From the IMG/VR virus record IMGVR_UViG_3300041405_000299, positions 1 through 64,000 of that record: a DNA stretch of 64,000 bases; one strand, 5' to 3'. Of this stretch, positions 16,654-16,863 are shown piece by piece (position 1 is the stretch's first letter; each line of letters opens with the position of its first letter). The translations under genes were made by a program, and so were the position numbers. The stretch comes from a virus. The notes below the pieces were generated by a model, which had not been told where the DNA came from, searched no databases, and was given only the letters and a program-made list of their open reading frames with translations.

Positions 16654-16764
16654 TGACGTGTAGCTTAAATGTAAAAGCCTTACGAAAGCTCAGTGCCGCC
16701 GGTGTGCGGACAAACACTGGAGTGATTATGATGGGATGAGAGCGACGAAACGCCTCCACGTTAA
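16654..16764 (+). ncRNA. tRNA-like RNA E1 (homologous to E2)
   Basis: Acceptor TGACGTG/CACGTTA. D arm GCTT-AAATGTAA-AAGC. Variable 55-nt core with CAGTG..CACTG and CCGC..GCGG stems. Conserved hairpin GAGAGCG-ACGAAA-CGCCTC. Confidence 0.5.
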
Positions 16765-16766
16765 TC

Positions 16767-16863
16767 GAATACGTAGCTCAAATGTAAGAGCCCGCAATCC
16801 CTCCCTGACGCCAAATCGGGTAAAGGTACGCGAGATGAGAGTGACGAAACACCTCCGTATTCA
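16767..16863 (+). ncRNA. tRNA-like RNA E2 (homologous to E1)
   Basis: Perfect acceptor GAATACG/CGTATTC. D arm GCTC-AAATGTAA-GAGC. Conserved hairpin GAGAGTG-ACGAAA-CACCTC with a C:G to U:A compensatory change relative to E1. Confidence 0.5.

Follow-up and report, generated by a model that had tools for sequence, protein, structure and literature searches.

The closest precedent by position for the two RNA elements described here is the rnaC/rnaD pair of phage T4 (the stable RNAs species 1 and 2), two tandem small RNAs (139 and 119 nt) on the tRNA strand at the end of the phage tRNA cluster, directly after tRNA-Arg, for which we know of no function. The elements, E1 and E2, are likewise tandem small RNAs that lie on the tRNA strand and abut a tRNA gene, in a 64,000-nucleotide stretch of virus DNA (IMG/VR record IMGVR_UViG_3300041405_000299, positions 1 to 64,000; hereafter, the window). 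Like rnaC, they have an acceptor-like closing helix, a T arm and large replacements elsewhere; however, the T arm of rnaC is canonical (CCGGGUUCGAAUCCCGG) whereas the corresponding loop of E1 and E2 is ACGAAA, rnaC is without the GCUY/RAGC D arm that E1 and E2 possess, and the covariance model R1, built for the family of E1 and E2 (the E type), finds nothing in the T4 locus (L422) at E ≤ 1. E-type elements are classed here among the non-decoding tRNA-like RNAs of phages, a known kind, within which a rebuilt elbow and a modular arm distinguish them.

The layout of E1 and E2 is also that of the engineered tRNA scaffold of Ponchon and Dardel, in which the acceptor, T and D arms are kept, a hairpin-shaped insert replaces the anticodon stem-loop, and correct processing and nuclease protection are obtained in Escherichia coli (PMC3753655). 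That scaffold is artificial, with a canonical elbow and with CCA encoded or added, whereas in E1 and E2 the elbow is rebuilt, the T stem has 6-7 bp and CCA is absent. YrlA (RF02553) is a tRNA-mimicking noncoding RNA, present also in phages, that has D-arm, T-arm and acceptor-like modules but does not decode (PMC4201824); it is permuted, its ends forming a Ro-binding stem at the anticodon position while the acceptor is closed, and its T and D loops are canonical, whereas E1 and E2 are not permuted and their loops are not canonical. Host RNase P processes the phage RNAs P4 CI, P1/P7 C4 and phi80 M3 (PMC5499578). These, like E1 and E2, are small phage RNAs that mimic part of a tRNA, and RNase P excises them from a longer transcript; as substrates they are hairpin-like with no T-loop equivalent (PMC5499578) whereas E1 and E2 have a T-like arm, and they act by antisense on nearby targets whereas no conserved target complementarity was found for E1 and E2. 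Plant mitochondrial t-elements and viral modules of the mascRNA/MHV68 type are tRNA-like folds that serve as RNase P/Z signals marking adjacent transcript ends; they are eukaryotic or organellar, with canonical T loops and no paralogue-specific arm, unlike E1 and E2.

E1 and E2 share a layout of a 7-bp closing helix, the dinucleotide UA, a 4-bp D-like arm with the loop AAAUGUAA, an arm of 42-56 nt, the trinucleotide GAU, and a T-like hairpin, GAG(A)GYG-ACGAAA-CRCCUC, that directly adjoins the 3' strand of the closing helix. Their parts are as follows (names beginning with L are contigs and loci used for comparison).

16654..16763, + strand: E1, whole element, 110 nt; 84.9 bits with model R1; orthologues in L250/L004, L251/L006 and L282.
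16654..16660 with 16757..16763, + strand: E1 closing (acceptor-like) helix, UGACGUG/CACGUUA, 7 pairs of which one is G-U; AUC follows, then E2.
16661..16678, + strand: E1 UA (16661-2) and D-like arm GCUU-AAAUGUAA-AAGC (16663-16678).
16679..16734, + strand: E1 variable arm, 56 nt, at the place of the anticodon arm; structured; 64% identity to the L250 orthologue.
16735..16756, + strand: E1 GAU (16735-7) and T-like arm GAG(A)GCG-ACGAAA-CGCCUC (16738-16756).
16767..16862, + strand: E2, whole element, 96 nt; 83.6 bits with model R1.
16767..16773 with 16856..16862, + strand: E2 closing helix, GAAUACG/CGUAUUC; AUCCCCU follows, then tRNA-Lys.
16774..16791, + strand: E2 UA and D-like arm GCUC-AAAUGUAA-GAGC (arm 16776-16791).
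16792..16833, + strand: E2 variable arm, 42 nt; 50% identity to the closest relative, the flanking cores being 93-96% identical.
16834..16855, + strand: E2 GAU and T-like arm GAG(A)GUG-ACGAAA-CACCUC (hairpin 16837-16855).

The sequence, read directly, and the homologues described below agree with the initial annotation in recognizing two tandem homologous tRNA-like RNAs directly after a suppressor tRNA, each with a 7-bp acceptor-like helix, a D arm (GCTY/RAGC) and a shared 3' hairpin, and in placing the sole difference between the two hairpins at one pair, C:G in E1 and U:A in E2. The extents that it proposed (16654-16764 and 16767-16863) were correct in location but exceed the helix ends, which are 16763 and 16862; the unpaired A that follows each helix (16764 in E1, 16863 in E2) is in the discriminator position. 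The bulged A of the 3' hairpin of E1 and E2 is in other family members part of a seventh base pair. As also reported at the outset, neither a UUCRA T loop nor an encoded CCA is present in E1 or E2; the flanking tRNAs encode CCA. The minimum free energy (MFE) fold of E2 is exactly the cloverleaf (-27.3 kcal/mol, z = -3.47), and none of 200 shuffled sequences folds as well, whereas the MFE fold of E1 takes an alternative pairing in the D region. The two motifs shared by E1 and E2, a 22-mer and an 18-mer, occur at only these two sites in the 64-kb window (chance expectations 0.00 and 0.12, respectively). With the family covariance model and filters off, the next-best matches in the window after E1 and E2 were genuine tRNAs at 17 bits, and no more E-type copies were found there.

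E1 and E2 were compared with tRNAs and with Rfam 15, the bar for tRNA membership being a covariance model score of at least 29 bits or an ARAGORN call. The tRNA model RF00005 gave no match over 16654-16862 even at E ≤ 10; ARAGORN made no call on E1 or E2 with default, intron (-i) or mitochondrial (-mt) settings, and at -ps70 and -ps80 made only spurious calls on the opposite strand. Neither at gathering thresholds nor at E ≤ 10 did any Rfam family (tmRNA, ribozymes and riboswitches included) match the elements, apart from a partial match of YrlA at E ≤ 10. Ordinary and intron-containing tRNAs are thus ruled out on this strand, and the placement of E1 and E2 in a phage noncoding RNA family outside Rfam holds. 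YrlA was rejected on its score (14 bits against a gathering score of 69, E = 6.4) and because the topology of E1 and E2 is not permuted; the partial match runs from the T arm of tRNA-Sup into E1 and is centred on the T arm of that real tRNA.

The structural features of tRNA are divided in these RNAs between those lost and those kept. There is no 5-bp anticodon stem with a 7-nt loop, U33 and an anticodon; a paralogue-specific arm of 42-56 nt takes its place, as had been supposed. There is no 5-bp T stem with U54-U55-C56-R57-A58 and no G18-G19; the T-like arm is of 6-7 bp with the loop ACGAAA, and the D loop is AAAUGUAA. The acceptor helix, U8, 4-bp D stem and, by analogy with tRNA-Phe, A14, the R15-Y48 pair, A21 and the 9-12-23 triple are all present in the E-type family. 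E1 and E2 thus share with canonical tRNA (RF00005) a 7-bp acceptor-type helix, U8-A9, a D stem with G10-C25 and U12-A23, equivalents of A14, A15, A21 and U48, and a position and strand within a tRNA operon, and differ from it in having no anticodon arm, G18 only, a T stem of 6-7 bp and a 6-nt loop. The family falls outside tRNA because the anticodon arm, the UUCRA T loop, the second G of G18G19, the 5-bp T stem and CCA are missing.

The predicted fold of the E-type RNAs is a four-way junction of closing helix, D-like arm, variable arm and T-like arm, and it is supported by covariation. In a core alignment from which the variable arm was cut out and in which two length variants were padded, all cores are gap-free, and 92.3% of cells are paired, against 71.6% in column shuffles, a figure that is inflated because the parser demanded pairing; the diversity of pair types per position is not affected by the parser in the same way. 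Changes on both sides were found in 16 of the 22 pairs (7 of 7 positions in the closing helix, 7 of 7 in the T-like stem and 2 of 4 in the D-like stem), and none of 500 shuffles reached any of these measures. When the 3' partners were slid by 1-3 columns as a control, only 28-55% of cells were paired. The same three helices were returned independently by RNAalifold from an ordinary MAFFT alignment of 13 full-length sequences. Covariation support, which the initial annotation had drawn from the single pair that differs between the two hairpins, therefore extends to all three core helices, and the structure-preserving substitutions that it looked for in relatives are present. The three helices contain 23 G-U cells and few mismatches; because these 23 cells would be A-C mismatches on the other strand, the coding strand of the element is the tRNA strand, and an RNA of the opposite strand at E1 and E2 is ruled out.

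The E-type family comprises 23 distinct full sequences and 19 distinct cores, gathered by exact-pattern scans of IMG/VR, of JGI/ENA metagenomes and of GTDB genomes, followed by a structural parser and a covariance model. The patterns demanded an 18-mer of the D-like arm, so that the census is biased and the true breadth of the family may be underestimated. E1 and E2 conform to the family definition in every element (closing helix, UA, 4-bp stem with loop AA(A)YGUAA, arm, (A)GAU, 6-7 bp stem), including a T-like loop, ACRNNN, complementary to the first (D-like) loop. All contigs of enterobacterial phages similar to Salmonella phage Arash have two or three tandem copies (three in L007) between tRNA-Sup(CUA) and tRNA-Lys(UUU). 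Arash itself has two copies, A1 and A2, between its tRNA(CUA) and tRNA-Lys(UUU), in a slot that is unannotated in its record; the paper on this phage mentions only "21 tRNAs" (PMC10585845). One copy is present in Pseudomonas phage phiPsa374 and its closest relatives (L008), another in a related marine contig (L295), and further copies in a tRNA-like island (L294/L304), in L283/L328 and in L270. The unrelated phage L349 has one copy within an array of seven tRNAs. Covariation supports the E-type fold across at least eight phage lineages.

Other searches added no members. Matches in the GTDB genome collection all failed the structural test, and no similar sequence was found in 5,426 complete E. 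coli genomes. Two loose gapped patterns gave, among the matches listed, only chance ones, and no fetched locus passed the structural filter; a third pattern added nothing but chance matches in coding DNA. A search for relatives of the upstream DUF1353 protein recovered only two close contigs that were already known. Literature searches found no description of E-type elements. The array of L349 (reverse strand, occupying the whole 1443-nt contig) is itself of interest, as its seven tRNAs are interleaved with the E-like element and several other non-tRNA elements closed by helices of 7-9 bp. Behind each of these elements comes a ACCAGUUU-like trailer, as behind the tRNAs (ACAAGUUU in the case of the E-like element), which suggests that such "passenger" RNAs are common in tRNA arrays.

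Twelve positions are invariant in the 19 distinct cores: U8, A9, G10, U12, A14, A15, G18, U19, A20, A21, A23 and the U of GAU. By analogy with tRNA-Phe, we take the core contacts to be U8-A14 with A21, A15-U48, and A9 on U12-A23; G45 would presumably contact G10-C25 if (A)GAU is taken as a 4-nt variable loop. An L-shaped body is, on this analogy, probably kept. One locus, L362, combines the D arm of the family and a T arm like that of E2 with a normal anticodon-type arm (5 bp, 7 nt) and an ACCA end. Because the invariant columns match tRNA core positions, because the family model retains a residual affinity for real tRNAs, and because of L362, we conclude, on sequence grounds, that the E-type family descends from tRNA genes.

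The largest departure from tRNA within the core concerns the elbow. Across the family, Y-G-U of the D-like loop is complementary to A-C-R of the T-like loop, as follows.

E1, E2, A1, phiPsa374 and L295: D loop AAAUGUAA, T loop ACGAAA, 3 loop-loop pairs, one of them G-U.
A2: D loop AACGUAA, T loop ACGUAA, 4 Watson-Crick loop-loop pairs.
L294: D loop AAACGUAA, T loop ACGUAA, 4 loop-loop pairs.
L007 E0: D loop AAACGUAA, T loop ACGUUG, 5 loop-loop pairs.
L283: D loop AAAUGUAA, T loop ACAAAA, 3 Watson-Crick loop-loop pairs.
L270: D loop AAAUGUAA, T loop CACAUAAC, 4 loop-loop pairs.

In the core alignment, the G:C and U:A pairs between the loops are invariant, and the third is U-G in 12 cores, C-G in 6 and U-A in 1, and never a mismatch. 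Between E2 and its orthologue A2, which have the same T stem, both loops differ together (AAAUGUAA/ACGAAA versus AACGUAA/ACGUAA). At one locus of the Otagovirus phages, phiPsa374 has the E-type loop pair inside an inverted repeat of 12-13 bp; in its sisters phiPsa267, PE09 and phiPsa315 this repeat encloses a cloverleaf whose loop pair is canonical (GG in the D loop and the T arm AUGAGUUCGAUUCUCAU). Because these sister phages hold either the E-type or the canonical GG/UUCGA pair at one locus, the two loops appear to have been swapped as a unit, which is the strongest of these hints. These comparisons are suggestive of a contact between the D-like and T-like loops that replaces the canonical elbow (G18G19 with U-Psi-C).

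Two observations on other RNAs touch on this elbow. In Pseudomonas phages of the genera Otagovirus and Flaumdravirus, a conserved inverted repeat of 12-13 bp (ATATACACTAGG...CTAGTGTATAT) closely precedes a small conserved open reading frame (ORF) rich in Arg, and was located in L424 (phiPsa374, ~2840-2945), L423 (phiPsa267, 640-735), L425, L426, L427 and L429 (930-1069). Its interior differs among phages, being E-type in phiPsa374, tRNA-like with a canonical elbow in phiPsa267, PE09 and phiPsa315, and of other kinds in PPSC2 and KIL2; ARAGORN and Rfam called no tRNA at the loci of phiPsa267 and phiPsa374. The repeat looks like a cassette slot for tRNA-like RNAs. In addition, several IMG/VR phage contigs (L439, L441-L447 and L450) contain apparently complete tRNAs, with anticodons such as UCG or GAU, in which the D loop is AACGUAA (no GG) and the T loop is UUAGAGU or UUAGACU (no C56); such tRNAs would decode while having an elbow that is not canonical and the D arm of A2-type elements.

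The variable arm evolves in a different manner from the core. Between the window and its closest relative, L250, the scaffold halves are 90-96% identical, the flanking tRNAs 89.5-100% and the neighbouring ORFs 80-83%, whereas the arms of E1 and E2 are only 64% and 50% identical, respectively. Each paralogue (E0, E1/A1, E2/A2) has its own arm type. Double-sided changes affect eleven pairs of the arm or stem in the A1 group (six sequences) and fewer in the E1 group (four sequences). Because the arms diverge fast yet fold with compensatory substitutions within orthologue groups, the arm is, to judge from its pattern of substitution, a structured, fast-evolving module on a conserved scaffold. The initial annotation had called the middle parts of the two copies unrelated: they are indeed paralogue-specific, but they are structured modules with compensatory changes, not junk.

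No conserved antisense target was found for E1 or E2. The longest complementarities of E1 and E2 within the window, at 11-12 nt, are at the null level, with the exception of a perfect 14-nt match between the E2 arm (16821-16834) and positions 12478-12491, in a small ORF (12421-12605) located in another gap of the tRNA cluster; its length equals the maximum in 200 shuffles, and it is treated as probably due to chance because the E2 arm is not conserved in relatives. GGA motifs of the CsrA type in the arms were considered and dropped, as they are by eye not consistently present and are absent from the E2 arm of the window.

The window, which comes from a large phage genome, has 25 tRNA genes called by ARAGORN, all on the + strand. 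Its nearest GenBank relative is Arash (~79% identity over 23% of a 6-kb query), which has been described as an "orphan" Salmonella phage (PMC10585845). The gap of 220 bases between tRNA-Sup(CUA) and tRNA-Lys(UUU) is not explained by tRNA finders or Rfam models; E1 and E2 are tandem paralogues within it, on the tRNA strand and inside the tRNA transcription unit, with 3-7 nt between them and their neighbours. The surrounding features are the following.

16537..16565, + strand: promoter-like site, TTGACA-17 nt-TACAGT with TG upstream, by consensus match only, immediately before the tRNA-Sup/E1/E2/tRNA-Lys block; 92% identity in L250.
16575..16649, + strand: tRNA-Sup, anticodon CUA, CCA encoded; called by ARAGORN, 56.3 bits with the Rfam tRNA model; 4 nt upstream of E1.
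16870..16946, + strand: tRNA-Lys(UUU), CCA encoded; called by ARAGORN and Rfam; 100% identity in L250; downstream neighbour of E2.
16736..16975, + strand: mechanical ORF of 79 amino acids that crosses the 3' part of E1, the whole of E2 and tRNA-Lys; an artefact, not a gene.

No terminator-like site was found between the promoter-like site and tRNA-Lys. The ORF at 16736-16975 had been judged spurious, and is ruled out as protein-coding because it overlaps a bona fide tRNA (69 bits) and two RNA elements with covarying helices. Of the 10 neighbouring ORFs checked, only a DUF1353 protein was recognised, and none gave a functional clue. A tRNA(CUA) of the amber-suppressor type lies directly upstream of the E elements in all Arash-like phages (16575-16649 in the window), and L007 has in addition an ochre-type tRNA with anticodon UUA (L007 5566-5644).

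Elsewhere in the tRNA region of the window, immediately 3' of tRNA-Thr (12808-12884), is a tRNA-Leu(UAA)-like element that is degenerate; its T arm (GUGAGGUUCAAUUCCUCAC) is canonical and its acceptor has 6 bp. It is missed by default ARAGORN and by Rfam, and is called only at a lowered ARAGORN threshold. A 214-nt spacer in the first tRNA cluster (4576-4789) contains no plausible ORF, has several stable hairpins (MFE -76 kcal/mol, z about -2.7) and no Rfam match, and may be another non-tRNA RNA. Two ARAGORN tRNAs, at 4502-4575 and 6925-7000, have four-base anticodons (agtg and caaa), i.e., anticodon loops of 8 nt, with Rfam scores of 34 and 50 bits; possibly they are quadruplet or frameshift-type decoders, or they are miscalls. 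At 12369-12410, 3' of tRNA-Asn, a U run comes after a strong hairpin (GGGUGGGUUC...GAACCCACCUCUUUUUU); this is likely an intrinsic terminator that divides the tRNA region into separate transcription units.

With moderate confidence, we propose that E1 and E2 are small structured RNAs derived from tRNA that do not decode: tRNA-processing enzymes would release each of them as an L-shaped scaffold on which a variable arm is displayed. The elements would be co-transcribed with the flanking tRNAs; host RNase P would cut at the 5' end of each element and at the 5' end of the next gene, with trimming of the 3' end afterwards, and stable RNAs of ~95-115 nt would result, much as engineered tRNA scaffolds process and protect an inserted RNA. 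The scaffold would serve processing and stability, while the working part would be the variable arm or the tRNA-like body itself. The most likely action would be binding to a host or phage protein that reads the shape of tRNA, so that this protein is titrated or redirected; from the evidence above we infer that a protein-binding role, with the arm or body as sponge or decoy, ranks first, and that a base-pairing regulator is less likely. In the members in tRNA arrays, the closing helix and T stem together make 12-14 bp, and the leaders, of 3-7 nt, are single-stranded.

Several points weigh against this proposal. Closing helices span from 5 bp (A1 type) to 12-13 bp (phiPsa374 and L295), and the stack of acceptor and T stem is 12-14 bp and not a constant 12; because of this range of 5 to 13 bp, processing by RNase P cannot hold for all members, and the paired leader of those with 12-13 bp should inhibit the enzyme. 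No CCA is encoded in E-type elements although the flanking tRNAs encode it. The E1 orthologues can form an alternative 5-bp pairing in the D domain, between AGCUU of the D region and AAGCU (16687-16691), that is mutually exclusive with the D-like arm. The members were gathered with patterns and a parser that requires pairing, so the alignment leans towards structure. Within the E type, the loop-loop contact is backed by one-sided changes only, and two looser relatives, L349 (loop UCGAC) and L362 (loop ACCAAAA), do not fit the complementarity. Nothing pointing to a partner for the arms was found.

A bolder form of the proposal is offered tentatively, as a possibility that we hold to be rather doubtful: the elements would be a natural "tRNA scaffold" display system in which a tRNA-derived body with a second solution to the elbow (a Watson-Crick loop-loop helix of 3-5 bp in place of G18/G19 with Psi55/C56) is still handled by tRNA-processing enzymes, exchangeable and fast-diversifying effector arms act as anti-defence or host-takeover RNAs (e.g., protein sponges), and arms and elbow module are swapped like cassettes among related phages.

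Of the other explanations, the one that survives best, although it is unlikely, is that the tRNA-like body is itself the decoy, a competitive inhibitor or sponge for host factors that read the acceptor and elbow, such as defence effectors that cleave or modify tRNAs, or toxins, the lack of an anticodon arm making it an uncleavable bait. The conserved tRNA core positions, a plausible L shape, and the location in phage tRNA islands, which are increasingly tied to counter-defence, are consistent with it, as is the presence of two or three diversified paralogues per genome. Defence nucleases that cut tRNAs outside the anticodon loop have also been reported: Septu cuts at the variable loop, and OLD removes the anticodon arm (PMC13096335). 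However, a main recognition surface, the elbow, is non-canonical in these RNAs, the variable loop is shrunk to (A)GAU, CCA is lacking, structured paralogue-specific arms would be superfluous in a pure body decoy, and members of the phiPsa374 type have closing helices of 12-13 bp. A decoy for anticodon nucleases, one of the roles first suggested, is unlikely, since E1 and E2 have no anticodon stem-loop that such enzymes could cleave.

A less probable reading is that the elements act in cis as processing signals or insulators, comparable to t-elements, the fold recruiting RNase P/Z or blocking exonucleases and so setting the ends of adjacent tRNAs or mRNAs, and the excised RNA being without function. 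They abut tRNAs with spacers of 3-7 nt; the Otagovirus element lies between two ORFs, ~35 nt before the conserved small ORF; non-homologous cloverleaves can take its place inside the same inverted repeat; and plant mitochondrial t-elements (cited in PMC5499578) provide a precedent. Yet the tRNAs next to the elements are sufficient processing signals by themselves, and elsewhere in the window tRNAs follow one another at 1-2 nt; punctuation would not require two or three tandem copies whose arms differ, are conserved and compensate, and the special loop pair is kept across distant phages. Pure processing punctuation, another of the roles suggested initially, also fails to explain the members outside tRNA arrays with closing helices of 12-13 bp.

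It is improbable that the elements are cis-regulatory RNAs, riboswitch-like or protein-binding leaders whose ligand or protein would bind at the junction and the loop-loop contact. Docking loops and a four-way junction in which the bases UA and GAU are invariant would suit such a role, and the copies of phiPsa374 and L295 are just upstream of a small Arg-rich ORF, but in the window and in all Arash-like phages the elements lie between tRNAs and not before an ORF, no terminator or alternative structure sequestering a ribosome-binding site was seen, and sister phages put a different cloverleaf at the same site. Still more improbable is that E1 and E2 are decaying, functionless tRNA pseudogenes: descent from tRNA genes, location among tRNAs and at least one degenerate tRNA-like sequence in the window (12808-12884) would agree with decay, but conservation is higher in the cores than in the coding DNA nearby, compensatory changes on both sides are seen in each of the three helices, and phages of Enterobacteria and of Pseudomonas that are unrelated share these unusual loops. 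A self-cleaving ribozyme that matures the adjacent suppressor tRNA can be dismissed almost entirely: hepatitis delta virus (HDV)-like "theta" ribozymes are associated with phage suppressor tRNAs, E1 lies directly 3' of one, and GAUGAG...CGAAAC superficially resembles a hammerhead core, but no Rfam ribozyme model matches at E ≤ 10, the covariation-supported helices make a simple, unknotted four-way junction and not the nested double pseudoknot of HDV-like ribozymes, and, as to the hammerhead, GAAA is in the loop of the hairpin right after GAUG and the C of CUGA (the C3 equivalent of CUGAUGA) is absent or variable, the A1 type reading GAUGGUG where a hammerhead core expects CUGANGA.

Phage tRNA islands are now viewed as modules of counter-defence and translation takeover. 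Annotation pipelines list only the canonical tRNAs of such islands, and the "gaps" are passed over or filled with spurious ORFs, which is what happened at E1 and E2. The E-type family indicates that some of these gaps contain conserved structured RNAs that have kept the tRNA core and lost decoding. Cultured carriers exist in Salmonella phage Arash (two copies) and Pseudomonas phage phiPsa374 (one copy). If the RNAs are stable and processed, they would offer an RNA expression scaffold already optimised by nature, a natural test for the tRNA features that RNase P, the CCA-adding enzyme and tRNA-targeting immune effectors read, and a handle on the 50-year-old question of the role of non-tRNA stable RNAs such as rnaC and rnaD of T4.

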